A stretch of DNA of 45,968 nucleotides, filler included, from Jimgerdemannia flammicorona (lineage: Eukaryota), in NCBI GenBank assembly GCA_003990765.1. It is 2 parts of 2 records of this genome, joined end to end, with 100 filler letters (N's around TTAATTAATTAA, not from the genome) between each part and the next. Parts side by side here need not be neighbours in the genome. Positions count along the whole stretch, not along the records: positions 23,038 to 45,968 come from RBNJ01001183.1; 1 more part is not named here. One strand, 5' to 3'. The notes under the pieces were generated by a model. The model ran no database searches. It had not been told where the DNA came from and was given only the letters and a program-made list of their open reading frames with translations. This document shows, in pieces, positions 19,230 to 45,968 of this stretch (positions are counted from its first letter, which is position 1; the number at the start of each line of letters is the position of its first letter). Made by a program: the position numbers and the translations under genes.

Positions 19230-22200
19230 ATGAACAGTATAACCAACATTTTTTCTTTGAATGTGAATGGGCTAAGGGGCACTGTTAGGTGCAGGAACAT
19301 TTTTATTTGGTTGAAGGGATTGGAGGCCGATCTCTTCCTCTTGCAGGATGTCAGGTGCGAAGATGACTCTGATAGGGTGGAATGGACTAAGAAATAGGGT
19401 GGCATGGCGATTTGGAACAGTAAGGTCGGGATTCTGGTTCAGAAAGGCAGAGGGGAGATAAGGAATGTGAGGAGCTGGGGGGAGAGACTGGTCTGGGGTG
19501 AGTGGATTTGTGCAGGTTGGGAGCCAGTCACAGTTGACTCCTGTTACTGCCCTGCTGTGTGGGGGGAGCATGTAGACTGGGTGAAAGGGCTCCTGGAGAG
19601 TGAGATCCTTGCTGAAGCTGGGTTAGATATGCTTGGAGGAGATTTCAATATGGTTCGGGATGTACAGCTGGATAGAACTAATAGAGGATGGGGTGCTGAG
19701 AGTAGGAGTAGGGGGCTGGTAATGTGGGAGGAGGTCGAAAGGCTAGGAGTACTGATGAATGCTGGTAGGGAGTACTGGGGGGACAGGAGGGTATATACGC
19801 ATTGGGCTGGAGGTTTGGGGACAAGAATTGACTGGATTCTGATGGCCGACTGTTGGAGCTGCGATGTTTAGAAGGTGCTAGAGGTAGAATGGTATCCATG
19901 GTCAGATCACTGGGACCTTTTGGGACAGGGGTGTTTTGGGGGAAGTGGTGATGGGCCTGGACATTGGTGCCTAAACTCCTCCTTGTTGGATGATGAGTCC
20001 CGGTAGGAGGAGTGGACAAACGACATTCAGCTGAAGGTAGTGAATTGGCAGCAGGAAGGGGCTGCGATTGGGGTTCGGTGGTTGAGGATGAAAGAGATGG
20101 CCAGGATGTATTGGAGTGAGGCTGGCAGAGTGGCTGGGAAGCAGCGAAGGCAGAAAGTGCATTGGGCTTCTACTAGATTGGTTAGGCTCCTGGAGGAGTG
20201 GGCAAGACTGGCAGTAGTAGAGGGGGAAGAGGATTGGAGAATAGCGAGGGTGAAAATGGAGGTTGGGGAACTACAACAGGTGCTGCGGGAAGAGGAAGAG
20301 TCAAGGGTGTAAGGCCTGGTGGCACGGCTTCATTGGCAGGGGCTGGAGGAAGGGGAGAGGTCTTCCAAGTTTCTCATGAGGGCACTTTAAGCGAGAAGGG
20401 TACAGCAGCAGTGGGAAGGGGTACTTGACTTAGATGGTGTACTAGTGCATGGTGTACAGGACATCCTTGGAATGCTGAAGGCATGATGGAGTGGATTGTG
20501 GAGTGAGGAGGAGGGTGGGGTGGATGCTACGGCTATTGACCAAATATTAGAAGATTGGCACCCACCACAAGCTGAAAGACTAGGTGACCTGGTGATGCCT
20601 GTAAAGGAGGATGAGATCCACCAGATTCTTGCCGCGACAGCCTTGGGTATGGCACCTGGGGAGGATGGCCTCCCCTGGGACTTCTGGAAGCAAATGGTTG
20701 GAGTCTCGGGCATGTTGGGGGAGTTGACAGCACTGTGTGACTCTATACTGTAGTCAGGGAGATGGGTGGGGGAGCAGAATCTTGGACTGGTGACACTGCT
20801 TTATAAGAACAAGGGGAGGTGAGAGGATTGGAAGAACTGGCAGCCGATAATGTTGCTAGACATGGACAGAAAGTTGGTGACTAAGGTGGTGATCACAAGG
20901 CTACAGAAGGTGGCCCAGCAAATTGTGGGTGTTGAGCAGAGGGGCTTCATAGGGGGTCGGCTCATTAGAGATGGCATAGCCTGGGTACATAGAGTTATTG
21001 AAGGTGCTCGAGCCTGTGGACTAGATGGGCATCTTGTCTTCTTGGATCAGGAGAAGGCTTATGACCAGGTGCAGCGAGTCTGGCTGGCAAAAGTATTAGA
21101 TAGAATTGGGGTTCCAGTCCCATTTCGGTTGGCAATGGTCAGCCTACTGGAAAGGAGTAGGGCTGCACTCGTGTGTAATGAGCATAGAGGGGTAGCTTTC
21201 CCTCTAGGTAGGGGAGTGCCCCAGGGGGACCCACTGTCCCCCATATTGTATGTATGCTCTTTCTTTAGAACCTCTAATGGACAGGATTCGGCAGAGGATA
21301 GTGGGGCTCTCTATCTATGGCATTGGCTGGAAGGTTGGAGCCTTTGCAGATGATATGGTAGTTGGTTTGGGAGTGACTGTGGATGTCGAGGAGCTCAAGA
21401 AGACAGTGGAGTGGTATGAGGAGAACTCTGGGGCAAAGCTGAATTGGTACAAGTGCAAAACAATGGTACTGGGCAATGGCCTGGTGGGCAGAGAAGTTAT
21501 TGGAACAATTGTCCCCACTGGAGAGGTAGTGTAGTACTTGGGCATCTATTTGTCAGTCTATGGGTCTGTTTTGCCCAGGCTGTAGTGAGAGCAGTAGATT
21601 GAAATTTGGGAGGAGGACCTGCAGGGTTGGGGGGGTAGACGCTTCTCTCTGGCAGGAAGGATCTCGATTTTGAATATATACTGGCTGCCAAAGCTGTGGT
21701 ATTTGGCTTATCATCTGGACTTCCCAGCCTGAGTGGTGAAGAGATTGGTAAAGGTGGCTAAGGGATGGATTTGGGCTGGCAGACGGAGTCAGATTGGTTG
21801 GGAGACTTTGTCCCTACTGGTGGCGAGAGGTGGTCTTGGGCTGGTGGACTTCTCCAAAAGACTACACTGCTTGAGGGCATGGTGGCTGAGGAGGGCGGTG
21901 GAGTTGCATGGAGGGGGCTGGGTTCCCCTACTACAGAAGGTATGGGAGAGGCAGACATCACCAAGAGGCTTGACTGGTGATCTTCTGTCATTAGTTGGGC
22001 TTCAGAACACTGCGCAACTGAGATATAAAGGCTTCTGGTGGGGGATAGCCAAGGGGGTACACCACATTGGTATTCGCTGGTGAGGGGATGAGGGGGAGAG
22101 GGCTTGGGGCCCGGCAATGTGGAGATGGGATGGCATTCTTCTGGGAGGCATGCCTTTACTTGAGTTCAACATTAATAATGGCATCGAATGCCAAAGGGGA

Positions 22201-22937: not shown

Positions 22938-23037
22938 NNNNNNNNNNNNNNNNNNNNNNNNNNNNNNNNNNNNNNNNNNNNTTAATTAATTAANNNNNNN
23001 NNNNNNNNNNNNNNNNNNNNNNNNNNNNNNNNNNNNN
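22938..23037. other. Assembly gap / artificial contig spacer
   Basis: Two N runs flank TTAATTAATTAA (22982-22993), which gives stops in all six frames. Confidence 0.95.
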
Positions 23038-23611: not shown

Positions 23612-24448
23612 TCACGCCTGCTCAGTATCGCTCGCGGGTTGGGTCGGCTGAACGCCATTGGTGGCGCTCGGCGCACCGTTACCGTTGGTCGGGGCGGGTT
23701 CCTCACCGTTACCGTTGGTCGGGGCGGGAGGCCCACCGTTACCGTTGGTCGGGGCGGGAGGCCCACCGTTACCGTTGGTCGGGGCGGGTTCCTCACCGTT
23801 ACCGTTGGTCGGGGCGGGTTCCTCAGCCTGGGCGGCAGATGGATTGACGGAGACATCATTCCGGTTGTTGACGTTGATGCCAGGCAAGGGAGCGCTGCCA
23901 GCGTACGGTTGGAAATTGCCACCGTTCTGGTAGGGGTGGTAACCGTTGGCACGGTAGGGGGACGCGGGCTGACCGTTGGACGGGAACTGGCCGCCGAACG
24001 GAAGAAAAGGGGATGCTTGTCCTGGGATGAACTGGCCGTTTTGGTTGTTTGCCGGGAACTGCTGGTTGTCGCCGAAGGGAAAGCCTCCGGACTGCCCCGG
24101 GAAGATCGAGCGATCGAAGGGGGATCGTGGGCCTGAGATGAGCTGGCCGCCCTTGTTGTAGGTCGGGAATGGGGACCCCGGGGTGATCTGCTGACCGCCG
24201 ATCAAGACGTTGCTGGGGAACGACTGCACGTTACCCTGCCCATTGACCTGGCCGTTGTCCTCCATGTTGTCCTGCCCGTTGCCCTGTCCGTTGCCCTGTC
24301 CGTTGCCCTGTCCGTTGGTCAGCCCTGTGGCCTGTCCGTTGGCCAGCCCATTGGCGCCTTGCTGTTGACGGGAAATGAGGGGGCTAGCGGTGGAGAGGCC
24401 GATGAGGGCAATGACGGCGACGGCGAAGAGGAGGGTGTTGGGAGACAT
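23612..24448 (-). CDS. Secreted low-complexity N/G/Q/P-rich repeat protein (cell-wall or extracellular candidate)
   Basis: 278-aa ORF. Signal MSPNTLLFAVAVIALIGLSTASPL, NGQG repeats, five (EE/GP)PAPTNGNG repeats, no Cys, C-ending codon bias. Confidence 0.85.
   Translation of the reverse strand: MSPNTLLFAVAVIALIGLSTASPLISRQQQGANGLANGQATGLTNGQGNGQGNGQGNGQDNMEDNGQVNGQGNVQSFPSNVLIGGQQITPGSPFPTYNKGGQLISGPRSPFDRSIFPGQSGGFPFGDNQQFPANNQNGQFIPGQASPFLPFGGQFPSNGQPASPYRANGYHPYQNGGNFQPYAGSAPLPGINVNNRNDVSVNPSAAQAEEPAPTNGNGEEPAPTNGNGGPPAPTNGNGGPPAPTNGNGEEPAPTNGNGAPSATNGVQPTQPASDTEQA
23674..23823. repeat. 30-bp coding tandem repeat x5
   Basis: Unit caccgttaccgttggtcggggcggg(ttcct/aggcc) at 23674, 23704, 23734, 23764 and 23794. 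Confidence 0.95.
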
Positions 24449-27134
24449 GGCGGTTTGATTCGAGGTTGTGAGTAGATAGCTGTGATGGATGTGAATTTGT
24501 TTTTACTCGAAGTGTGGAGTGGTTGAGTTGAGTTTGCTTTGGTTGCTATGTTCTGGGATGAGAATTCCAACGAGTCGATTCACTCGTTTTTATGTGTTCT
24601 GGGGTTATTACCGGAGCGACATACGTCTTCTCTTGCTTTGGAGCATCTTGAAGCTTAATCATTCCATCAATCATGCCGTATCGTCGAGCTTTGTTCCGGG
24701 GATTGCGGGCCATACAATCGAAGAGGATGTCGTTTGATATCAGGTGATGAAGCTTTCGCCTCAGAACCGTTTTTGCTCTATGGTGTATATCTTGATTTCC
24801 ATCATTTAGGTTTGTTGAGCACAATAATGTTCAAACTGTTTCGTGTGATGCCAGATCATAAAGCTTGATGTAGGTTTGTCGTTGCCTGATTTTTTTTTTT
24901 TTTTTTTTTTTTTTTGATGGATATGATGTAGATTTTGATCTCGATGGGTCTGCGGATTTGACCTAGTCCATCATTCGTCGTATCTCAACAATGGTTATTG
25001 GCTCCAATCCTCATTGATAATTGGATGTTTCAGTTCTGCAGCTCGCGCTATGCGTAAAAATATGTCGAGATGCATGAATCATGGCACAACACGTAAATGT
25101 ACTTTGAGCATGGACGTGGTGGCAAAGAAATGTTTTGACATGAAGCAATTTCAAAAACAGAAACACCGAATGAAATTCGCAACTCGGGTCATACAGCGTT
25201 CGAATGAGACGTTGCCGTCATCAAGAATTTATCGCACGCGCACCGATGAAAAAGTGTTCTCAAAATCAAGATTCAATGTGTCGAGGGTCAGAGGATCAGA
25301 GGATCAAACCGAGAAAACTTTGTCAGGATGAGAAGGCATTCCATTCTGAGCCAAGTTGCGACAATACACCATGATCGATTCCATCCGACAGTAGTGGTCT
25401 CTCTCCACCTCTTCCAACAAAATGCGACATTTTGAGGTCGTATGGTAGACGCAATCTTCCCTCCCTAGATGTTCGCATTCATCCAATTTTACTGAAGATT
25501 AGATTCTTACTCCCCTCCCTCTCTCTCCCGTTTTTTTAATTGTCAATGTGTTCCATGAATGCGAATCTCCATCGTTTGCCTCCTGCGATTCGGCTCACAA
25601 AGGGTGTATAAAAAATAAAATAAAAAAATCCTGCAACAAAACCACTTCGAGTTGATCGAGCACGCACACAACGCAAACGGCACATCCCTCCGTCCCCCTT
25701 GAAAAACAGAGATAGAAAAAGGGCAGACATGGTATATATTATATATTAAGGATTCGTAATTAAAAAAAAAAAAAAAAAAGGACTTTGTGTTATAATACTC
25801 CTAAGTCACATTTTAACCACCTCGACCCCATATAATCCCAATCCATTTCCGACCCCATACATATCAAGCGTCGTGGCACATTCACCTTGATACATATCGT
25901 GGTACACATTACTCCGGAAGGACACGCCCAAAAAAAGCCGAGATGAAGGAATGCACGGCGCCTTCCAGAGTATGTGGTGTTCCATTAGATCAATTTAGCA
26001 ACCTGCATATTCATTTCGCTCCCGTCGGGTAACACCACCACGCACCCTTACAGAAATTGGGCAACACAGGGAGATCCCTATCGCGTGAAAAAAAAGGGTC
26101 TTGTAGTTCTCACTTTTCCGGCAGGCCGACTGTGTCAAATCCCTCTGCCCCTCAATTAATTTCCCAATTCGGACTTACCCTTCGTGTCAAATTTCCGAGG
26201 GTTCCAGCAATTTCCTTCTTTCTCAATTTCTCGCCTTTCCATACCTCCAGGTAATTAGATCCTTTCCTGCGTGTTTTACTCGTCCGCCTGTGACAGCGGG
26301 CGCGACACCAGAGCCAATGGGCGGCCCATCTAGTATTGGTCATTTTTTCGCCCTCCCTCAAACAGAAACTCGGGTACAAACCTTAGCGCGTTTCTCTCGC
26401 GTCTATATTTTTTTCTCCGAGACTTGATCATGTCGCGCCCTCACGGGACTCTCCGAATACCGCTAGACTGGTTGGCGCCAATGTCACGCAAACAGCTAGA
26501 GTGAACGAAACTTGCAATGGTCGGTAGATCCTCATATAAATATTTATATTTATATATTGGAAAGAAAAAAAAAAAAAAAAAGAAGAGACTTATGCCAAAC
26601 AAAAAGGTCGCGTTTGATTGGCGACAAAGAATTTTGAAAGGAACCTTGCGGAAAAGAGGATAGTACAGGGATGGAAACGAGGAAGTGAAGGGGGTGGGTG
26701 GGGGAGGGAGGCGGAAACTGTATAAACAGGTGAATAGATGGTGATGAGGTCGGAGCGGGAGAAATGACTAGAAGATACGGTGAGGTTTGGAGGAAACTGT
26801 ACAGACAAGTTCGAAGGGAATGGTTGTTTTGAGCTAGAGGAAGGATATTATATACAATCTTATATATAAGCTGGGGACGGTTTGAGGAACCGATACAATA
26901 TACAGGATGGTAAAAGAATGGAAAATGTAGTGTTCGATGGTTTGATGGAAAGGTGCTTTTGATATAAAGACATCAAAAAAAAAAAAAAAAAAAAAGGAGC
27001 AAAGAAGGAAACAAAGAGCAGTAAACACGACACGTATTCAAAAAAAAAAAAGCAAGTTGTCCAAGATCTTGAGAAACGAGTACGAATTTGTAGAAAACAT
27101 AGCAGGAATCAGTGAAAAAGAAAAATTGTCAAAA

Positions 27135-31597: not shown

Positions 31598-34500
31598 CAC
31601 CTTTCTCTGGTACAATTCATGTTACACCAACTTCAAGCAATAGTTTTTCAACATAACTCAGAGGAAAGTGACTAACAACATAGACAGCAATGATCAAACT
31701 GGTGAGTATACTGGCCAGGGGGATGCTGGCACCTTTGGCTGGCAGTAGGTGGGGAGGAGGAGAGATGGTTTGGAGATGCCGGAGGCCTCAATGGCGAGCC
31801 GAGGTCTTGGTGGTAGAGGGAGAGGTGGGCTGAGGCAGCGAGGTGGAGAGAGGTTGATCTTCACTGACAAGGTCCAAATGGGGAAGATGGCCTCAGGCTT
31901 GGATGGCTAGCTGGGCCTGGGGAAGGCATTGACGGCTGCTGCTAGGGGACAGGGGGGTGTTCCCAGGGGAGCCTCAGGTGGAAGGGGGGGAGCAGGTGTA
32001 GGGGTTGGAGATGTGACTGCTGATGAGGCTGTGACTGGGGATCTGGCAAAAAATCCAGATGTGACAGTGGTTGGCAATTCAGGACTGGGAGGGGGCATGA
32101 GGCCCAGGGACCTGGTGGATGGAGTGATGGGCATGGTGTCGGCCCCATTACTCAAGAAGTCGCATTCGGAATTTGTGGTCACATTGTGCTTCCGGGGCTT
32201 GGCGGTGATGGCGAGGATGATTTTGGAGCTGGTGGCGTAGGAGGCAAAGGGAGCTGCATCGGTGAAGTTCTTGAGAGGGAAGGAAGGGGTCGAGGTGGAG
32301 TTTGAGGAGGAAGACACCTTGTTGGCAGCCATGAAGAAGGGGGTGAAGGTGGGTGAGGTGGTGGTCCCCATGATCTGGTGTATGTGCTGGAACCCCCGAG
32401 TGGTACAGTTGATGGTGTTGGATCTCCCCACGGTGTTGAAGGAGAGGACCAGGGAGTTGGTTGTAGAGGCGATCAAGGAGTATGGTGAGATCGTGGATAT
32501 TGGATTCAATGTCTGGGAGGGCATGGAGCTTAGGACTGGCGATGTCAATGTCTGAGTGAGGCTGGCTGGGAGGGAGAATATGGGGAAGTTGAGGGACTGG
32601 CCAGCGATGCTGAGGTGGGGACCAGTGGAGTATAAGGTCACAAGGGTGAAGGGGACCCAGGAGGAGGAGGAGGACCTGTTGGAGGCACTGGAGGATCTGG
32701 AAGGGGCTGTTGCAAGGAGGAGATTGGCCTGGAAGGAGTTTGAGGCCAGGACGGTGGTGGGGGAGGTGGATGGGAAGAGGGTCCGGATGGAGAAGGGGGC
32801 CTGGGAGAAGTTGCAGGGGAGGAGAATCCAGAAAGAGCTGCTGGCGATGATGGGGGAGGGTAGGGTCGGTAGTGGCTCAGGAGAGGGAGTTGCAGGGCTG
32901 TGGGAGAGCGCCTGGGCAGAGGGGGGAGAAATGGCCCAGAGTGCAGTCCAGATTGGAGTGGGGGAAGAAAGGGAAGACAATTTGGTGGCAGACACCGAGA
33001 TGGGTGAGAAGTGCACCCTCAGTATAGTGTTCTGGGTGGAGCTGAGGGGGAGGAGGAGCTGCTGGATGTGCCAGATGAGGAGTGGGATGAGTCAGTGAGG
33101 GGGAGCACACTGGTAGATCCCAAGGTGGATGGGGGACGTATCGCTCAGGGTGCAGTGGAGGCAGTGGATGAGGAGAAGTGAATGTGGAAGACCCTGGAAG
33201 GGGTTGCGGCTGAAGAGCTGGGGGGTGAGGATTTCAGGGTGATAGAAGAGAGGTACTGGGAGGAGATCCTTCGGGGGGAGAAGGTGCCAAGGAAGATGAG
33301 GAATGAGATTCTGGTGGTCCTTCTGGAGTTGGTTGAGTATCAGGTTGATGATCAGCGAGAGGAGGAACTCAGGAAGGTGGCAAGTGACAGGGCACTTTTC
33401 TTGTGGAATGCTAGGAAGGGACTGGAGAAGTGGCACGCAGTCTGCTTAGACTACCAGTCAGATATGGAGGAAGTGGACAGGGTTGATTGTCAGGAAATCT
33501 TGGGGGCACTGGATACTCAGACTATTGTGGAGGGTGACTTGGAAGCTGAATGGTGCTTGGATCTGGCCGGAGATGAGATGAGCATGGAATTCTAGACTGG
33601 GGTCTCTATTACAATGTCTATCAATATGAACAGTACAATAAGGATATTCTCATTGAATGTTAATGGGTTAAGGGGGGAGGCTAGGAGGAGGTATATATTT
33701 GGATGGCTGAAGGGACTGGATGCGGACCTCTTCTTATTACAGGATGTTCATTATGAGGCAGATATGGACTTATAAGATTGGACTAAGGAATGGGAGGGCA
33801 TGGTGGTATGGAGGGGGAAAGTGTGTATTCTCATTCGGAAGGGGATGGGGGACATTGAGGACATTGGATATTGGGGGTCTAGGGTGGTGTGGGGAATGTG
33901 GAAGAGGCCTGGATGGGGCTTGTTGATGGTTGGGTCTTGCTACTGCCCAGCTGAGAGAGGGGAGAGGGTGGATTGGATTCGGGGATTGAAGGAGGCTGGT
34001 GTGTTGGGGGAGGTGGGGCTGGACTGTATGGGAGGTGACTTCAATATGGTACAGGATAAAGCGATGGATAGAACGGATGGCGGGAGAGGCTTGCGAAGCG
34101 AAAGTAGTGGGTTGGGTGACTGGTTAGAGTTGGAAAGGTTGTGCTCTTTAGTGGACTCCAGTAGACAGTTTTGGGCCAAGCAGTGGGTGTATACCCACTG
34201 GGCAGCGGGGCTGGGTTCCAGGATTAACTGGGCTCTGACTGTGGAGTGTTGGGGTGCGGATGTCTGGTCAGCACTGGAAGTAGTATGGTGTCCATGGTCT
34301 GATCATTGGGGACTGTGTAGAAGGGAGAGGTTTGGGGGAAAGGAGGATGGGCCTGGACATTGGCAGCTAAACTCTTCCTTATTGGAGGACAGGACATTGT
34401 GGGAGGGTTGGAAGACAGAGGTGGTGGGTAATATCAGCAGGTGGTGGGAAAGAGGCCTTGGGATTGAGGACCGATGGAGATGACTGAAGGCAAATGCTCA

Positions 34501-37352
34501 GGGATATTGGAGGGAGGCAGGGAAAGGTGAATGTGCTCGGCATAGGCAGAGGGAGCTGTGGGCCTCCTGGCATCTGGCTGCACTCATGGAGAGATGGGCA
34601 GGGGTGTTGGTAGATGGCAATATGTCTGATTGGCATATTGTTCAAATCCGGCAGAAGATAGGGGAGCTTAAAGGGGTGTTGCAAAGGGAGGAGGAGATGC
34701 AGGTGCAAGGAATGGTGGCCCGGCTGTGGTGGCAAGGGCTTGAGGAGGGGGAGAGGCCTACTAGGTTTTTGTCATGGTTGTTACAGGCATGACGAATGAG
34801 ACAGTGGTGGGAGGGAGTTCTGGATGAGGATGGCGAGCTGGTGGGGGGGACTTCAGCAATTCTGGGACTATTGAGAAATTGGTGGGAGAAGCTATGGAGT
34901 GAGGAGGAGGGTGAAATGGATGCTCTGGATGTTGAAGGACAGCTGGGGGATTGGCACCCAGACGCTGCATTAGGACTTAGCACATTGGGGGACCCAGTGA
35001 GTGATGAGGAAATTTGCCAGGTTGTGGTCTTGACAAGTAAGGGAACAGCTCCAGGAGAGGATAGACTTCTCTGGGATTTTTGGCAGAAGATAGTTGGGGT
35101 GGGCAAGGTGCTGGAGGAGATGACTGCTATGTGCAATGGGGTTCTTCAGTCTGGTACTTGGATTGGGGGTCAGTGCTTAGGGCTGGTCTCATTGCTCTAC
35201 AAGAACAAGGGGAGGCGAGAGGACTGGAGGAACTGGCGGCCAATTATGCTTCTTGACATAGACCACAAACTGGTGACAAAGATCTTGGTGATGAGGCTAC
35301 AAGGGATTGCTCAGCAGGTGCTTAGTGTGGAGCAGCGTGGGTTTGTCAGTGGTCGGCTGATTCGAGATGAGATGGCTTGGGTTCATGGAGTGATTGAAGG
35401 TGCCCGAGCGACTGAGGTGGATGGCAGATTGGTGTTTCTGGACCAGGAGAAGGCCTATGATAGAGTGCGGAGAATATGGCTGGAAGGAGTGCTGAAAAGG
35501 ATCGGCATTCCCCCAGAGTTTTGAGCTTCTTTGATCGGCCTCCTTGAGGACAGTCAGGCAGCACTGGTCATTAATGGCCACAGGGGGGTGACCTTCCCCC
35601 TGGGGCATGGGGTACCGCAAGGGGATCCATTGTCACCCATTTTGTATGCCCTTTCCCTGGAGCCGCTACTGGACAGAATTTGGCAGCAGATTGGGGGTTT
35701 GGACATTCTGTGGGTTAATTGGAAGGTGGGGGCCTTTGCTGATGATATAGTGGTCGGGCTGGGCTCCTTGGCAGATGTGGGAGAGTTACAGAGGTCAGTG
35801 GAATGGTATGAGAGGGGTTCTGGGACCAAACTAAACTGGCACAAATGCGAGACTCTGGTGCTGGGTGCCGGCATTGTTGGTGGCGATGTCATTGGGACAG
35901 TGGTACCAGCAGGTAAACCAGTGCATTATTTGGGAATTTACTTTTTGGTGTTTGGGTCTCTTCTTCCCCAGGCAAGGTGGGACAGTAAGCTTCTGGAGTG
36001 GGGAAATATTCTGCTGCATTGGGGTGGCTGACATATGTCTCTTGCCAGGAGGGTGATGGTACTGAATGTGTATTGGATGCCGAAGCTATGGTATGTTGGA
36101 TATCATTTGGATTTCTCCTTCTGAGTGGTCAAGGGGTTGTTGAGGATGGCAAAGTCATGGATCTGGGGTGGGCGATGCAGCCAGGTTGGGTGGGAGGTGC
36201 TCACCCTGCCCTTGGAAGGAGGTGGGCTGGACTTAGTGGACTTTACTAAGCGACTCCTGTGTCTGAGAGCTTGGTGGTTGTGGAGGGCAAGTGAGCTTCA
36301 TAGTCAGGAGTGGGTGCCACTCTTGCAGTGGTTGTGGGAGGTTCAGTACTCCCCACGTGGTGGCTCCAGCAACCTGCTTGCAATGGTAGCCATGGAGGAG
36401 AGCCGGAGGATGAGGTTTACAGGCTTTTGGTGGGGGGCAGTGGATGGCGCTAAGAAAATAGGTCTTTGCTGGTGAGGGGATGAAGCTGAGGAGGATTGGG
36501 GACCACGAATGTGGAGGTGGGACAGGCTTCTCCTTGGTGGCAATCTGGTGGAGAACTTCTGGCTTAGTGAGAGTCTGGATTGCCTGAGAGGCTTAGGTGG
36601 TGAACTGTGGCCCAAAGCCTGGCAGGGGGTTGGAATTGGTGAGGAGTGGGATTGGCATGAAATCTGGCTCTGGTGCAAAAGGGTGAGGCAGTGGCTGCCC
36701 CCCAAGTTCTGGGTGGTGAGGTGGCGCATCCTATGGTGAAATGTGATGTTGAACTATCAGTCTGGGCACTTGGTGAATGGTGGAGTGTTCGAGTGTGAGG
36801 AGTGTTTCAACATTGGTCAGGAGGGAGGAGTGGTACAAATGCCTGAACATTGGCTTGGCGAGTGTGAGGTTTTGGAGGAGTTTTGGAGGTGTATTATGTA
36901 CCGGTTGGAGCTGGGCACCTTGGAGGGAGAGGGAGGGGGGAGATGGGGAGCGCTCTGCCAGCATCTGGTGGGTGGGGTTGGGGATGAATGGCTGACCCTT
37001 GGCTGGGCTTTGGTTATGTGGGTTGGGCTGGCAGGACATTGGGTTCACATCTTTGAGGAGAGGCATCAGGTGGAGGTTGGGGACAAGGTGGTGCATTGGG
37101 AATGGTTGCTATTGGACATTCTGAATAGCTGGTGGCGGGGTTGGGGGCCAGGCGGGGGACACCGTCAGGGTCTAGTGCAGTGTATCTCCCAGAAGAGTGG
37201 TGGGAGGATTCAGATTGTGGGGAATTGGGTGGTGTTTGGGTAGGGGGAGGGTGAGGGAAGTGGGTTGGGCCCATGGGGCATTGGCTGAGGGTGGGGGTGA
37301 CATTGTATTGTTAGCACTATAGACTTTGGTAATAAAGGGCAGTCCAAGTGAC

Positions 37353-37933: not shown

Positions 37934-39220
37934 TGTGACAAATCAAGACATATCACCCGAATTATACCTTAACCAGATAATGTGAACAATTAGCCAAGAT
38001 GATGTAAACACACAGTATAGCAACCTGCAACCATTGCTGCAGAACCTGTATAATTAGCCAGACATACCATAAAGGGTCTGTTTACCTGTACAGACTCTGT
38101 ACACCTGCCATAAGTAGCAGATCTATAGTTAGCCACATAGCAACCAGATAGCAACCAACTTGTATAAATTACCCCAGAGACAAGAGTGAATAAACCTCAG
38201 TCTGAAAGTTGAATACAAACTAAAGCAAAAGTCAATTGTCTGGTACACTTAGGAGAAATGCTTGCCAAAAGCCACTTAATCTAGGAAGGATTGCAACACT
38301 TAGGAGATATGTCTACCAATGAGCCACTGCCAAGAAGTTGTGAGCTTGGTTCTCTTCTCTTCCACTCTGGTCCACTTTCTGATACAAAGAATGAGTCCAT
38401 TTTTGGTTTGCTTGCCAGATAAGCCTGAAGATTTACCACCCAAGTTCAAGGAAGAACTTCACTGCCTTTTGAGTTATCTACCATATTCCCAGTTAAAGCC
38501 GCTGATTCAGAAAGAATCCACACCATCATGTTCCCAGAAGAGCCCACTGATTCAGAAAGAATCCATACCATCTGAGTAGTATTCCCAGTTGAAGCTGCTG
38601 ATTCAGAAGAATCTACACCATCTGAGTTATTTCCCAGAGAGCCACTGATCTAGGAAGAATCCATGACATCTGAGTTATTCATTGTTCCCAGTGAGCCTGA
38701 GTTATTGAGTTATCCACTGCCAGTATTATTTCCAGTAAGGAGAAACTACACCATACATTCCCAGTGAGTCAAATCGAGTTATCTGCTAGGAATCACATAC
38801 TTTTGGAGATCATTATGCTATATAGAGATTGTCATACTACACATGAAATTCCACCAATTCCCAGTTGACCCAAGAAGGAAACTGCTAAATTGCCAGATCA
38901 TCATGTATAAGAAACTCACACTATACAAGAGATCATCATACCAGAAATTACATACTTTTGGAGATTGCCTTGGTACACAAAATTGTGGCATTCTCAGTTA
39001 ACCCAAGAAGGAAGGACACAAATCACTGCTATACCTAGAGAACTATCCCAATAAGGAAACCACTTGCAGATATCCAGCTTGACTATTATACCACTAAACA
39101 CCAAGGACCTCAAGAATTTTAGAACATTTTGTTACTTTTTGACAAAGTAACTGGGGGCTCAAGCCAAACTACATCAACCCCCAACCTTGTAATTTGCCTC
39201 CATTGAGCCGGCACATTACA
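37934..39220 (+). repeat. 3' LTR (older, CpG-decayed) related to the LTR at 39622-41128
   Basis: TGTGACA...ATTACA ends. Long shared blocks such as atagttagccacatag..gcaaccaacttgtataaattaccccaga and the terminal ccttgtaatttgcctccattgagccggca. Confidence 0.88.
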
Positions 39221-39621: not shown

Positions 39622-39788
39622 TGTAACAGACCAAAACGTACCACCTGAATTATAACTTAGCCAGATGACGCGAACAATTAGCATACTTACCCAGCATGAT
39701 GTGACTTCTAGTGTATCATAGTTACTCATGCCCACCACACTTATAATTAGCCAAGACACCAGATCAGGATTGTTTATCTGTGTCCCGA

Positions 39789-39891
39789 GGACACACTCAT
39801 GTCCGGCGGACACACTCATGTCCTGCAGACACACTCATGTCCTGCAGATACACTCATGTCCTGTGGACACACCTGTACCCAGAGGACACAC
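39789..39891. repeat. 19-bp tandem repeat (~5 copies) within the LTR
   Basis: Unit ggacacactcatgtcc(g/t)gc with period 19; each unit contains the inverted pair GGACA/TGTCC. Confidence 0.9.
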
Positions 39892-40109
39892 CCAAACATT
39901 ACCAAAGATAGCAAATCTATAGTTAGCCACATAGTAACCAGATAGCAACCAACTTGTATAAATTACCCCAGAGGCGCGAGTGAATAAAAACATCAGTCCG
40001 AATTGAAGTGCAAACCAAAGAAGCCTCTAAAGATTGAGCAATTGGTCCCCTTATTCCCACTCTGGTCCACTTTCCGATACAAAGAAGAGTTTGTTACGTT
40101 TTTGGTTCA

Positions 40110-40336
40110 CTTGCCAGATAAGCCTGAAGATTTGCCGCCTAAAGTTCAAGGAGAACTTCGCCGCCTTTTGAAGAACCCGCCACTTAAAGGAATAAGCCGC
40201 GCTGTTGGTATGCTTGCCAGATAAGCCTGAAGATTTGCCACCTAAAGTTCAAGGAGAACTTCGCCGCCTTTTGAAGAACCCGCCGCTTAAAGGAATAAGC
40301 CGCGCTGTTGGTACGCTTGCCAGATAAGCCTGAAGA
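40110..40336. repeat. 103-bp tandem duplication (2.2 copies) within the LTR
   Basis: cttgccagataagcctgaaga starts at 40110, 40213 and 40316. Confidence 0.92.
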
Positions 40337-41130
40337 ACCCTATCCTCCGCCTTCCCAAGAAAGCCGCCTTGCCCAAGCCAGTTTCTGACGCAACTTCGCA
40401 GTGATCCATTCGCGCAAATGAAGCCAGTCCTTAACGCAACTTTGCCAAGAGACCCTTTCCAAGAATGCCGCCAGTTGTTCGTATTCCCAGTAGGAGCCCG
40501 CCGATTCAGGAAGAATCCGCGCCATCCCGTTTTCCAGTTGAAGCCGCCGATTTAGAAGAATCCGTGCCATCCGAGTTAATTCCCAGTTGAAGCCGCCGAT
40601 TTAGAATAATCCGCGTCATCTGCCGTTTTTCAAGTTATCCGCATTCCCAGAAAAGCCATCCGAGTTATCCATTATTCCCAGTGGGCCCGGTATAGAAGAA
40701 TCCGCGCCATACAATTCCCAGTGAGCCAAATCGAGTTATCCGCCAAATTATCAGAACATCCGCATAAGGAACCCACCGCGCTACACGAAGATCATCGTGC
40801 TACACAAGATCATCACGCAGAAATCAGAGATCGTCACCCAAGAAGGAGAACTGCTAAATTGCCAGACCATCACGCACAAGGAGATCGTCGCGCTACACAG
40901 AAATTGTGCCATTCCCAGTTGACCCAAGAAGGAAAAGACATACAAATCGCCGCTACACCCAGTGAACCGTCCCAATAAGGAAACCGCTCGCAGATATCCA
41001 GCTTTGACTATTATACCGCTAAACACCAAGAACATTTTGTTGCTTTTTGACAAAGTAACTGGGGGCTCAAGCCAAACTACATCAACCCCCAACCTTGTAA
41101 TTTGCCTCCATTGAGCCGGCATGTTACATT

Positions 41131-41149: not shown

Positions 41150-41695
41150 ATTTTAAAATTGACGTGACTTTTCAGCTCACAAGAACCCACAGTCAAACTG
41201 GATACATTTGATACGACACCAATTTCTGCCACTACAGGAGAACCAGTCATCACTAGCATTTGGACAGGAAGAGAAGTAATCACCTCAAGACTCGCCAACT
41301 ATCCAGCATCAGAAGGATCCCAACCAGAAGCAGGAGGCAGTACAGCCCAAAATCTCCAACCAGACCAACCAGATCAACCAGACAATACAGGCAGCCCTGC
41401 TAGAGATTTTGGAGAACTTGCACAAGAACTAGAAGACCTTATCACACGAACCCAATACTTCACAGCCAGACACCCCACACCAGTCCCACCAATCTCACCA
41501 ATAGAACCCCTACCACAACCCCTTGCAGAACCAGAAGTAGCTTCTACAAGAATACCTAGGCCCATTTCACCTCACCCAAGGACCAGAACACCATCGTCAA
41601 GATATCCAAGCACCCCCATTTCTAGTAACAGTTCAGAAAGTGAATCAGAATCAGAATCTGAACCAGAACCAGAATCAGAAGAAAGTGATGAAGAA

Positions 41696-44600
41696 ATGGC
41701 CACCTCACTGCCGATCTTTGCAGGATACCCGGAAGAAGACCCCAGAGAATTCCTTGATGGAATCGAAGGAATCGCAGCCTTAAGAAATCTCTCAGATGAA
41801 AGAAAAATCGCTATCTATAAAGCCCAGCTCAGGGAACCAGCCAGAGGAATTTTCCACTGAACAGCAAACAACCCAGATTCAGAATTAGCAAGACAGATAC
41901 AAGCAGCAGCCTCCTATGAGCTAGAATATCAGGCCATGGTCTACTGGCTCATAGAAAAGTATGCAGGAAATGAAACCTGCCATAAGGCTCAAGAATCCAT
42001 CATGGGAATGAAGATGAATCTTGGAGAATCGCCCAGAGCCTTCTTCACAAGAATCCAGAAGAGAATGCATTCTGCTGGGTTCAATGCCACCAACCAGGAC
42101 ATCATAGGTCCAATGACCTTCATGAATGGAATTCCCCCGAATATTGCCCAGCATGTCCGCACCCTAGGCATCAGAAGGTCTGAAGAACAAGTAGATGCGG
42201 CCCAAGGATTCTTTGATATCAGGCAAGGAACCACCTGGAGCGATCATGATAAGAAGGAAGACAAAGAAGATATTCCGGTCAAGGCCCTGCAAGGACTCCT
42301 TCAAGGGCAAGAAAGGACCGAAGAAAGAAGGCCAGCCAAGGAAGGAAAGAAGGATAGAAGCGAAATCCAAGACCTCAGTTCCAAGTTGGACCGATTGGTT
42401 GGACAGATTGAAAAACTCACCACACGCGAAAATCGGGACTACCAAAACAACAGAGGGTACCCACCACAGAGGAGCCAAGGTTATCCACCAAGAGATAACA
42501 GGAATTACCAGCAAGAAGAAAGAAGGTACCCTGCCCGAGACAGAGCCCAAGTCCAATGCTTCCACTGTAGACAATTCGGACACTATGCCACTGAATGTGA
42601 CAACAAAAGAAGTGACCAAAGAAACTCAGAACCACCAAACCGAAGGAATGACACCCAGTACAAGAAGACTGAGGCCCATCCTGTTGAAGATTTCGAGGAA
42701 GCAAGCAACAGTGAAGACTACAGTGACCTAGACTTGTACCCTACTAAGGTTACAACCCGAAAAACAGTCTATCCAGCAGAGAAGAGAAAGAGACCTGTAG
42801 GAAGACCATCCAGGAACATCAGCAGAAGAATTATCCAAGAAGAAGACGAAGAACATGAAGGAGAACAAGTAGAAACACCTCCCCGAACCCCCTCACCTTT
42901 TGTCCCCGAGACAAATGAGCTGCCACCAGAAGATGAAGAAATGGAACAAGAAGAACAGGAACCTGCTGCCCCAAAGCCAAAAAAAAAGTACACCCCAAAA
43001 ACCATGCCTAGGGATATTTACAATGAAGCTTGGCAGAAGATTCAAGAAGCCAAGATGGAAGTCCCTCTCCTGCAGTTCTTACAATTGACACCAGCGGGAG
43101 TCCGAAACAAATTGCTGAGAACTACAAGGTCTAGCACCGGCTGAGTCCCAATCCCACAGCAAGAACCAGCTCCCATCCAAGCAGCTGAAAGACATGTTAG
43201 CACCTACCTACATGGAGATATTGGAGGACAAAAAGCGAAAATCCTCATAGACACAGGAGCAGCTGTCTGTGTCATTGCCAAACGATTCCTGGATACCCTT
43301 CAGTGGCCCATTGACGGACCATCCAACCTCAGCATCATAGTAGCAGATGGAGCCCGAACTCAACCCCTTGGAGAAGTACGAAATATCACCATCTCTCTTG
43401 GACACATTCAGTTCTCCATTCCCAAAGCTGTTGTTACTGAAGCTGTCACCTATGACATGATTCTTGGCACCAACTGGATGAAGGAAATGAATGCAGTTGT
43501 TGATATTGGCCAACAAGTACTCAAGTTTGACTACCGAGGCAAGAAGTATAGAGTTAAGGTGACTAGCTATGAGCAATCAAAGAAGAAGAAGAAGGTCACT
43601 ATTCAAGAAGAATATGCCAGCAGTGAAGAATCCACCACAGAAGAAGAGAAAGAAGAGGAAGAATCCGAAGATGGAAATGATCCCAGACTCAATCCCCGAA
43701 TCAATCTGGTAGATGACAGACCAGAAGACAATGTGTGGGCCAAGAACACTATCCCTATCACCATTGGAGCTATTGCAGGAGAAGCCAAAGGATGCCCTAC
43801 ATGCCTCAAGAGACACAGGTGTCCCAAGCACTCCTCCAAGATCATGGGAACAAGGAAATCACCTGGCACAGCCTGCCCAGAGTGCAGAAGGAAGAAGAAG
43901 AGATGCAGACATGTTCCCGAAACCCCCGCAACTGAAGCTGTAGAAGTACAAGCAATTTGGGGTCAAGAATTATTCGAGGAAGATGAAACTTCTGACCAAG
44001 AAGTTCCTGAACAAGAAGCACCCAATGAAGAAGAAGTCCCTGAACTTATCCCATGGGATGACCCTCGTTGGACACCACCTGAAGACAATGACCCTTGGAA
44101 TACAGAAGAAGGACCCAGTACAATTACCATTATTCCCAAGAAAGAAACTCACCAAGAAAAAGCTTTCCGGCTGGGGAGATGTCTGCATCAAATGGTCTTC
44201 CACTCTCCCCGAGACTACTGCTATCAGTGTCATCTGTTGGATCAATAAGAAAGATAGAGACCCCAGAGACCAGAACCTCCAACTACTCTTGCACAGTCTA
44301 CCACTTTTCAAGAAGTCACCACAAGGTTACAAAGTCGATTCAGAGGACAAGGCTTCTTCACCCGAACAGAAATATATCCCTTGTCTACCCTTCCACCCAC
44401 CTACGATCAAGATGGGTACTGATTCCCAAGACAACAGGAGATAAACAGCTGAGAACACCATTTCCGAGCAATGGGATATTGCAACCATGGGAAACACCCT
44501 GACTGCCGAGACTGCAGACATCAGAAGATTCATCTCAGTCATGATGTTGCAGTGCATACTTTGAAGAAAGGAGACAACCGAAGCCAGATCCGAAAAAGCC

Positions 44601-45685
44601 AGACCAAGAAGCCAGGAAGAAGAATCCTCAAGATCTATGATTTAGGAGAAGACATCCTAGCTCTTATAAGACATGCAACCCGTCGAGGATGGGCAGAAGA
44701 TGCTGCCAACTTCATGGAAGCCCTGGACCCCACAGGAAGAAGAGGAATCAATTACCTCCGAGACCCCTCTACTGGAACCAGATGGCCACACCTCAACCTC
44801 AGAGCTTGGAGGCTCTCTGCCAGTGGAGCTTCAGCCTTAGGAAAGCCCGAACTCAGCAAGGATATTGCCCAGTACGCCCTGCTGCACCCCAAGGCCAAAC
44901 CCCCGACCAAAGCCCACCCAGAGGACATAGGATATGATCTTCACAGCCTGGAGGATGAATCTATTAAGCCTGGAAAAATCTTCATGGTCAGAACCGGATT
45001 AGCCATGCAGCCACCTCAAGGAGCTTATATTCAACTGACTTCAAGGTCTGGACTTGCCAGACAAGGGATAACTGTAGAAGGAGGAACCATTGACCCTGGA
45101 TATACAGGCGAAATCAAGGTCATCCTACACAACAACAGTGCAGAATGGCACCGAATCATTAGAGGACAGAAGATTGCCCAAGCAGTCTTCATGAAGGTCG
45201 AGATCCCACAGTTACAGGAAGTCTCCGAACTAACTGAAGGAACAAGACAAGCCAAAGGATTTGGAAGTTCAGACAGGAAGGAGGTACATCTCCTTCAAGT
45301 CAACCACCTCAAGAGGAATGTTCCCCAGCAAGTGTACCGGCAACCAGTCTGACTGCACAAGAATCTCATCCTGGAACCTGGAGAACAAACCACCTTTGAA
45401 ATCTTTGCACCACCCGACCCCAGAAATCTTTTCTTTGAACCTAAGGAAGATATCCCACACCTAGACATAGAGGGACACACATTCCCTGACAAGATGAACC
45501 CAGTACACTCCCGAGCAACCAACCAAAGTTGGGAGACCATCATCTTGCCGAAAGGAACCATCATAGGACATCTGGTACCTTTCCTCAATCGAACTCATAG
45601 GGAAGTTTATGAACTAAACCTATCGGGAAACGGCAAAAGGTCCCAGAAGAAAGGAAAGGCCCCTCTGCGACCCAGGAGACAGTAA
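41696..45685 (+). pseudogene. Gag-protease-Cys/His modules-dUTPase polyprotein in one frame, broken by point-mutation stops (frame open upstream to ~41168)
   Basis: ATG 41696 and ORFs at 41936, 43457, 44471 and 45494 are all in the same frame. Motifs: PIFAGYPEEDPREFL (gag), CFHCRQFGHYATEC (42557-42598), ILIDTGAAV (~43241-43267), DMILGTNW. Interrupting stops are TGA/TAA/TAG, each one C-to-T from CGA/CAA/CAG. Confidence 0.88.
44870..45274 (+). CDS. Trimeric dUTPase domain inside the retrotransposon polyprotein
   Basis: All five motifs present: IGYDL, SRSGLA, GTIDPGYTGEIKV, GQKIAQ, RQAKGFGSS. Confidence 0.95.
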
Positions 45686-45968
45686 AGCCTTCCACCAACA
45701 TTGGAGAAGAATTGACACCTCAACAACAGCAACAACTAGTAGAACTTCTCAACAAATATCAAGATATCTTCACCACCGATTATGGCAACCTGCCTTACAA
45801 CCCATCATATCATCACAGCATAAATACAGGAAGTGCAACACCCATCCGGCAGAAACCCTATAGAATACCCCATCACTTGAAAACATTCGAAAAGGAGCAC
45901 ATCCAAGAACTCTTAGACAATGGAGTCATCCGACCCTCTACCAGCCCCTGGGCCAGCCCTATACTTAT
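45631..45968 (+). CDS. Ty3/gypsy reverse transcriptase N-terminus, in the -1 frame, no ATG, partial
   Basis: NIGEELTPQQQQQLVELLNKYQDIF...HSINTGSATPIRQKPYRIP...IQELLDNGVIRPSTSPWASPIL. Confidence 0.9.

Follow-up and report, generated by a model that had tools for sequence, protein, structure and literature searches.

How does a retrotransposon express its reverse transcriptase (RT) when the RT frame is offset by −1 from the frame that encodes everything before it? The question is raised by a Ty3/gypsy-type long terminal repeat (LTR) retrotransposon of Jimgerdemannia flammicorona, whose 5′ part fills the last 4.8 kb of the stretch of 45,968 nucleotides (nt) analyzed here (the window; GenBank assembly GCA_003990765.1) and which continues past the window end. 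An earlier note on this DNA had proposed a programmed −1 ribosomal frameshift (−1 PRF) placed after protease and dUTPase and directly before RT. Judging from the sequences compared, the heptamer GGGAAAC probably marks an ancestral −1 PRF cassette in this family, and what the window carries would be a fossil of such a canonical cassette, with an alpharetrovirus-like gag-pro/pol layout.

The element was compared with a second copy of the same family, the 4101-nt locus L001, which was the single related locus found in a scan of JGI metagenome contigs; no related loci were found in viral contigs or genome contigs. The two open reading frames (ORFs) of the window copy and the signals at their junction are as follows:

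41168..45685, plus strand: ORF1 (frame 0), with gag and its CCHC knuckle, aspartic protease (PR), a long linker, dUTPase, a second dUTPase-like domain and a basic tail (from the translation, the list of stops and Pfam).
45610..45612, plus strand: last −1-frame stop (TGA), the 5′ limit for the shift; the last −1-frame stop of L001 is at the same aligned position (the L001 ORF opens at 1310).
45613..45968, plus strand: start of ORF2 in the −1 frame, the N-terminal RT region, open to the window end; 109/117 residues are identical to L001 ORF2.
45625..45631, plus strand: slippery heptamer G GGA AAC, the proposed tandem −1 slip site; frame-0 codons TCG (45623-25), GGA and AAC; identical in L001.
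45632..45638, plus strand: spacer of 7 nt, read from the sequence.
45683..45685, plus strand: ORF1 stop codon, TAA in the window and L001 and TGA in most metagenome copies.

The positions that the earlier note gave for this junction were all correct: the phase of the heptamer, the 7-nt spacer, a stem pairing at 8/9 positions, the complementarity of AAGGC with GCCTT and the TAA at 45683-45685. It had also placed RT in the −1 frame. That frame is indeed open from 45613; the window ends (45968) before the RT core, and the −1 ORF is named RT because the 109 matching residues align with the start of L001 ORF2 (494 amino acids, aa), which carries RVT_1 and RNase H.

ORF1 and ORF2 overlap by 73 nt, with the same layout in L001, and G GGA AAC is the only canonical X XXY YYZ heptamer among the 22 in-phase positions of the overlap. 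Such heptamers (XXXYYYZ in phase, with Y = A/T) are found at 5/1503 codon positions in the window frame, 1/457 in L001 ORF1 and 1/492 in the L001 RT frame, and finding one among 22 positions by chance is roughly a 1-in-15 to 1-in-20 event. It is the comparative evidence, rather than the heptamer alone, that lifts the site above chance. PMC5009743 lists G_GGA_AAC with the heptamers on which mammalian ribosomes are most prone to shift. L001 ORF2 has no Met before the RT core, its first Met lying inside RVT_1, so that a normal AUG start of its own is impossible.

The proposed mechanism is that in working copies ORF1 would supply gag, protease, dUTPase and the second dUTPase-like domain, and that ribosomes would gain access to ORF2 (RT, RNase H and integrase (IN)), which is in the −1 frame and has no start codon of its own, through a programmed −1 frameshift on G GGA AAC (45625-31). 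The tRNAs on GGA and AAC would slip back to GGG and AAA, and decoding would resume at CGG 45631-33. An RNA structure 7 nt 3′ of the heptamer would probably stimulate the slip, the best candidate being an H-type pseudoknot made of stem 1 (S1) and stem 2 (S2). Most ribosomes would stop at 45683-85 and yield Gag-PR-dUTPase, with the complete fusion coming from a minority; the output of protease and dUTPase would follow that of Gag, and only RT, RNase H and IN would be rationed.

L001 aligns to 44304-45968 (1665 nt) without an internal gap, at ~75-85% nucleotide identity overall and ~52-97% per 60-nt segment. GGGAAAC, the ORF1 TAA and the −1-frame stop upstream are all retained in it, RT again lies in the −1 frame, and both bases preceding the heptamer are changed (TCG to CAG) while the G that completes GGG is retained. 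The differences between the two copies change phase across the junction: 31/41 differences in 45353-45612 fall at third positions of frame 0, and 27/33 differences in 45716-45968 fall at third positions of the −1 frame. This switch indicates that the copies diverged under purifying selection with the two-frame layout in place, and it is the strongest result of the analysis. On the comparison of these sequences, working elements must have changed frame between 45613 and 45685.

The junction is also conserved at the nucleotide level:

45625..45715, plus strand: conservation block holding the heptamer, both stems and ~20 nt beyond; L001 differs at 3 positions, where the flanks predict 13.5.

The three differences are at 45643, 45680 and 45696 (Poisson P = 7e-4). 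The 60-nt segments in the block reach 95-97% identity as compared to 52-92% in all others, which makes it the most conserved stretch of the 1.66-kb alignment, and it begins exactly at the heptamer. The ORF1 tail that it encodes is modelled as disordered, with a predicted local distance difference test score (pLDDT) below 50. Protein structure is thus a poor explanation of the conservation, which points to a constraint at the RNA level.

We further aligned 575 Logan contigs from four soil-metagenome runs (X1-X4) at a likeness of at least 80%; the contigs are short. None of the differences listed for them is an indel in 45391-45968, and the 6 indels listed across 44453-45968 all lie elsewhere. 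The ORF1 stop persists as TGA in most copies, with 45684 A>G in 98.8/110.5, 9.1/9.1, 8.68/10.7 and 4.99/4.99 of the depth in the four runs. The earlier note had allowed that the frame change might be a private indel of this copy; L001 and the contigs of all four runs keep the frame relation. Soil and root metagenomes hold related copies, from which we draw no wider conclusion on habitat or species.

Among proteins, an exhaustive phmmer search of 1.84 billion representatives and two word-index searches together yielded seven that include the part following dUTPase (P0002, P0003, P0004, P0152, P0153, P0154 and P0156). P0002, P0152, P0153 (404 aa, 19 members), P0154 and P0156 terminate at the same stop as ORF1, and P0003 (1179 aa, 37% identical) and P0004 (312 aa, 40% identical) terminate 22-27 residues later. 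No fusion to RT was seen in any of the seven proteins covering the ORF1 tail. P0003 carries the CCHC gag, PR and dUTPase in one uninterrupted frame, which backs an expectation of the earlier note that also follows from the layout, namely that protease and dUTPase are made at Gag level. As read from these sequences, the family has gag-PR-dUTPase-X as ORF1 and RT-RH-IN (RH, RNase H) as ORF2. The residue before Gly-Asn at the heptamer varies among close relatives (Ser, Gln, Leu) and Gly-Asn is retained, a pattern that fits selection on nucleotides rather than on that residue; both DNA copies seen keep G at 45625 (TCG, CAG). Six residues of window frame 0 just past its stop recur in the ORF1 tail of P0003. 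This comparison, made between proteins, hints that the RNA stretch around the shift site may be conserved even at 37% protein identity.

The Gag-PR-dUTPase frame had been thought to run cleanly to the TAA at 45683-45685. It does not: frame 0 holds seven premature in-frame stops (TGA at 41858, 43142, 44420, 44450 and 45350, TAA at 44246 and TAG at 44255). The cassette in the window copy is a fossil because these upstream stops would keep translation from reaching the site, and with the copy dead, a private indel became a serious rival explanation. The TGA at 45350 is private to the window copy, with T>A making up 120.8/123.3 of the X1 depth and the entire depth in X2-X4; L001 is open at the positions of TGA 44420 and 44450, and P0003 has Arg at the place of TGA 43142 in an alignment made by eye. 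Where the metagenome copies differ from the window, the change is mostly C>T or G>A (83/135 places in X1), and TGA accounts for 5/7 premature stops. This TGA excess and the C>T/G>A bias fit deamination-type decay, at CpG or resembling repeat-induced point mutation (RIP). An alternative genetic code was considered for the in-frame stops and rejected, as TGA, TAA and TAG are mixed and those that can be checked are private to the window copy.

Two stems can be drawn downstream of the heptamer:

45639..45672, plus strand: S1, in which 45639-47 GGTCCCAGA pairs with 45664-72 TCTGCGACC; 8 bp and a C45643/C45668 mismatch.
45653..45693, plus strand: S2, the pseudoknot-forming stem, in which 45653-60 pairs with 45687-93; 7 bp with A45657 bulged, present in the minimum free energy (MFE) fold and identical in L001.

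As a hairpin, S1 has a predicted energy of −8.5 kcal/mol, and within it L001 departs from the window only at 45643, one side of the mismatch. The S2 duplex is predicted at −10.0 kcal/mol, and its 7 bp extend the 5-bp pairing of AAGGC (45656-60) with GCCTT (45687-91). The implied pseudoknot would have loops of 5, 3 and 14 nt, with the stop codon within the last. A crude H-type score, which adds to an S1 helix starting 4-9 nt after the heptamer the best duplex between loop and downstream sequence (stem-only version), is −18.5 and is matched by 9/500 dinucleotide shuffles. The six known variable positions in 45625-45715 (45625, 45631 and 45684; 45643, 45680 and 45696) all lie outside the 30 paired bases (chance ~0.09). 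A Pro-to-Leu change in P0002 and P0152, seen in protein and implying CCC to CTC at 45672, would turn a G-C pair into G-U and keep S1. A search of 45400-45968 against Rfam gave no matches at E up to 10. We put the H-type pseudoknot as drawn at about an even chance, and given the conservation it is much more likely that some RNA element is present than that this particular pseudoknot is.

Several results weigh against this reading, either at the heptamer or in the structure. The earlier note had asked whether GGGAAAC is fixed across copies; it is kept in L001 and changed in part of the contigs. At 45625, G>A is found in 37.2/189.1 of the depth in X1, in all depth in X2 and X4 and in none in X3, and at 45631, C>T is found in 148.6/197.4 of the depth in X1, in all depth in X2 and X4 and in none in X3, so that some metagenome copies read AGGAAAT or GGGAAAT. 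GGGAAAT still fits X XXY YYZ, but AGGAAAT does not. Both sites are CpG, and the variants may be the decay of dead copies, which we regard as a fair explanation. Conservation of the heptamer is supported within the close family, P0003 and P0004 having been compared as proteins. The site cannot work today in the window copy, which is a decayed pseudogene. None of the 18 sequencing runs found for the stretch is an RNA run; the share of sampled words per run is at most 0.37. With regard to the structure, plain MFE folding downstream of the heptamer gave no excess stability over shuffles (z = +0.74, −0.23 and +0.52), and neither did a two-layer refolding heuristic (z = +0.86 and +0.28), which is unable to represent a pseudoknot. 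A first pseudoknot estimator, in which S1 was allowed to absorb the S2 arm, was matched by 69/300 shuffles, and the estimator behind the 9/500 result is our own, crude, and designed after the sequence had been seen. No covariation was seen, the stems being invariant between the only two DNA copies (the window and L001). A Ser-to-Ala tail variant in P0154 and P0156, seen in protein only, would break the U-A pair 45641-45670 unless compensated. The H-type pseudoknot of the earlier note is plausible in its geometry, with S2 now extended and the joint score rare among shuffles, and finds no backing in MFE excess or covariation.

How else could the frame change have come about? It could be a private indel, or other decay of a dead copy, with the heptamer there by coincidence. 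The window copy is clearly decayed, with its seven premature stops, and an in-phase heptamer in a 22-codon overlap is no rarer by chance than the 1-in-15 to 1-in-20 given above. Even so, this explanation is already largely refuted and we consider it very improbable: L001 has the same frame relation over 1665 gap-free nt, no indel is listed in 45391-45968 among the 575 contigs, five database proteins terminate at the same stop, and the third-position switch (31/41, then 27/33) requires that the two-frame layout was selected during divergence. The layout could instead be ancestral and Pol reached by another route, such as splicing of a short intron, transcriptional or RT slippage, another site in the overlap, or termination-reinitiation. 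The slip is something that we infer indirectly, and in Ogre elements GAG-PROT is joined to RT-RH-INT by splicing (PMC6317226); some copies have the degraded heptamer AGGAAAT, and P0003 and P0004 have longer overlaps with different residues at the aligned position. Against such a route, the ORFs overlap by 73 nt with no spacer between them, the overlap holds no other in-phase canonical heptamer, and its A and T runs do not exceed 4, which speaks against polymerase slippage. No Met precedes the RT core in ORF2, the conserved block opens with the heptamer itself, and the DNA contigs show no joined or deleted form at this place. We regard another route as unlikely, if less so than a private indel.

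A real frameshift could also be stimulated by something other than the drawn pseudoknot, namely the S1 hairpin alone, S2 as a long-loop hairpin, or another element in 45632-45715. This is a serious contender, to which we give somewhat less than an even chance. S1 and S2 each occur in alternative MFE folds, 61/300 shuffles produce a spaced hairpin that equals or betters S1, and covariation is absent; moreover, the conservation continues ~20 nt past S2 (to ~45715), which the pseudoknot leaves unexplained. S1 and S2 jointly, however, outscore 491/500 shuffles, the six known variable positions all avoid the paired bases (~0.09 by chance), and the Pro-to-Leu change of P0002 and P0152 would keep S1 through G-U, although this is deduced from protein only. 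A −1 frameshift at GGGAAAC, with the pseudoknot as its best candidate stimulator, is the explanation that we carry forward.

The domains that would be expressed at Gag level were located as follows:

43214..43483, plus strand: aspartic protease domain with a D-T-G motif (Pfam PF13975, residues 24-113 of the 43145-44245 translation).
44894..45271, plus strand: dUTPase domain (Pfam PF00692, residues 148-273 of the 44453-45349 translation, E 3.5e-26).
45353..45622, plus strand: conserved all-beta domain 3′ of dUTPase with a dUTPase-like fold (AlphaFold and Foldseek on the homologous part of P0003).

ORF1 further matches gag-asp_proteas (Pfam E 1.8e-11) and zf-CCHC (Pfam E 8.8e-4, under the curated cut-off), and it extends ~110 residues beyond dUTPase. 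The domain at 45353-45622 (~90 residues) matched no Pfam family, and a PDB sequence search with the tail/X-domain profile matched only the true dUTPase C-terminus. For the homologous part of P0003, AlphaFold gives a pLDDT of 79-92 over residues ~50-135. The top Foldseek matches of this modelled domain are all dUTPases, including the two-domain Epstein-Barr virus (EBV) enzyme (best E 6.1e-4, template modelling (TM) score to target 0.44-0.58). On this modelling, the dUTPase of ORF1 seems to be succeeded by a second, degenerate and dUTPase-like copy.

The element shows the Ty3/gypsy domain order, with CCHC (weak), PR and dUTPase in the window and RVT_1, RT_RNaseH and then Integrase_H2C2 and rve in L001, and its RT resembles Ty3/gypsy-type clusters. 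With the order gag-PR-RT-RNase H-IN and a candidate 5′ LTR, the 3′ LTR lying outside the window, it is an LTR retrotransposon of the Ty3/gypsy group (Metaviridae). The integrase ORF of L001 (Integrase_H2C2 and rve) likewise sits in the −1 frame with respect to the RT-RNase H ORF, which it overlaps by 25 nt at L001 2770-2794; this is probably an indel of a decayed copy, the alternative being a second frame change. Two LTR-like regions precede gag:

39622..41128, plus strand: candidate 5′ LTR with TGTAAC...GTTACA ends and direct-repeat families D3-D14 at a spacing of ~1690-1970 nt; boundaries approximate.
~37934-39220: diverged second LTR-like copy (blastn of 40485-41129 against 38531-39220, 69.5% identity).

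These direct copies (37934-39220 and 39622-41128) are ~1.3-1.5 kb each, lie ~400 nt apart and stand immediately 5′ of gag. Both contain internal tandem repeats of 45-50 nt, the copy at 39622-41128 having 103-nt repeats in addition, and a tandem array of 19-nt units lies at 39762-39894, with 5 overlapping copies of a 57-nt reference. The 39622-41128 copy terminates in ...GTTACA at 41128 and is directly followed by a TGG-containing stretch, a possible primer-binding site. The upstream copy (37934-39220) may be a solo LTR beside the 5′ LTR.

Elsewhere the window contains a fungal Zn(2)-Cys(6) domain gene, a kinase and a RabGAP-TBC gene, and fragments of non-LTR-type reverse transcriptase (RVT_1) from at least two genes at 20823-21353 and 33776-36031, whose presence marks the region as repeat-rich. 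A minus-strand ORF at 23612-24502 is of low complexity, with many Gly/Asn/Gln/Pro-rich repeats after a hydrophobic signal-like start. The N runs at 22938-22981 and 22994-23037 (44 each) are filler between the joined parts.

These observations describe a comparatively supported −1 frameshift in a fungal retrotransposon, in which rationing would split RT, RNase H and IN from everything else, protease and dUTPase included. The mechanism is the standard −1 PRF of retroelements, and our knowledge of the mechanism itself is unchanged; its position after PR and dUTPase is unusual. The arrangement bears on the amounts of protease and dUTPase that a virus-like particle can tolerate, and it offers a compact, testable frameshift cassette. 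It also matters for annotation, as gene callers split such elements or, as in one source's entry for P0003, call them 'dUTP pyrophosphatase'. On balance we lean slightly towards a lineage of fungal Ty3/gypsy elements not described before, known to date only from this genome and from metagenomes of soil and roots. In this lineage the single recoding site would have moved from the gag/PR boundary to a place before RT. Protease, an active-looking dUTPase and a degenerate dUTPase-like domain would there be stoichiometric with Gag, and the ~90-nt block of heptamer and pseudoknot would be near-invariant at the RNA level and partly recognizable in a 37%-identical relative.

A dUTPase between PR and RT has been reported in the fungal Ty3/gypsy elements PosPlaTy3-5 (Postia placenta), of Phanerochaete and Tmt1 of Tuber, and in the bdelloid elements Juno, Vesta and TelKA (PMC2864245; PMC5408684). 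The window element shares this placement. In the bdelloid elements, PR and the dUTPase domain are placed in pol (Figure 1A legend of PMC5408684) and a translational frameshift joins gag and pol, whereas here the proposed shift comes after dUTPase. The word 'frameshift' has 0 occurrences in PMC2864245, its figures and supplement lying outside that count. A full-text literature search returned no Ty3/gypsy element described as shifting frame after dUTPase, and an earlier depiction is possible in the figures or supplement of PMC2864245, which that search did not cover. In plant LTR groups such as Ogre, a GAG-PROT ORF precedes RT-RH-INT and an intron of ~274 bp is removed by splicing (PMC6317226). 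The Ogre ORFs are thus separated by an intron, whereas those here share 73 nt, within which a slippery heptamer lies.

The G GGA AAC heptamer occurs together with a pseudoknot in PEG10, a mammalian gene derived from Ty3/gypsy, and in some plant poleroviruses. The present cassette has the same heptamer as these canonical cassettes and a candidate structure after a 7-nt spacer; here the structure is predicted and has no match in Rfam. What the Atkins review describes for PEG10 is its frameshifting and its pseudoknot.

The closest parallels in layout are retroviral. Betaretroviruses have the domain order dUTPase then PR, unlike the element described here, where PR precedes dUTPase. In the pro-pol shift of mouse mammary tumor virus (MMTV) and Mason-Pfizer monkey virus (MPMV), a −1 shift occurs after the dUTPase/PR ORF and before RT, on a heptamer with a pseudoknot 5-8 nt downstream (PMC12789967). 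Betaretroviruses make two shifts (gag-pro and pro-pol), so that dUTPase and PR are already rationed relative to Gag, whereas here gag, PR and dUTPase share one frame. In Rous sarcoma virus and avian sarcoma/leukosis virus (RSV/ASLV), protease belongs to Gag, and Gag-Pro-Pol arises from one −1 shift immediately ahead of RT (PMC12789967). The earlier note had called the layout typical of alpharetroviruses, and the expression logic is indeed the same, with PR at Gag level and RT/IN rationed; a GAG-PROT first ORF is not unique to them (PMC6317226), and what we claim is likeness, not membership. The differences are that this is a fungal Ty3/gypsy element, that ORF1 adds dUTPase and a dUTPase-like domain, and that no env is seen in the window, which ends before the 3′ half. 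If the frameshift operates as proposed, the alpharetroviral solution has been arrived at within Metaviridae, with a dUTPase and its dUTPase-like duplicate added to the structural ORF.

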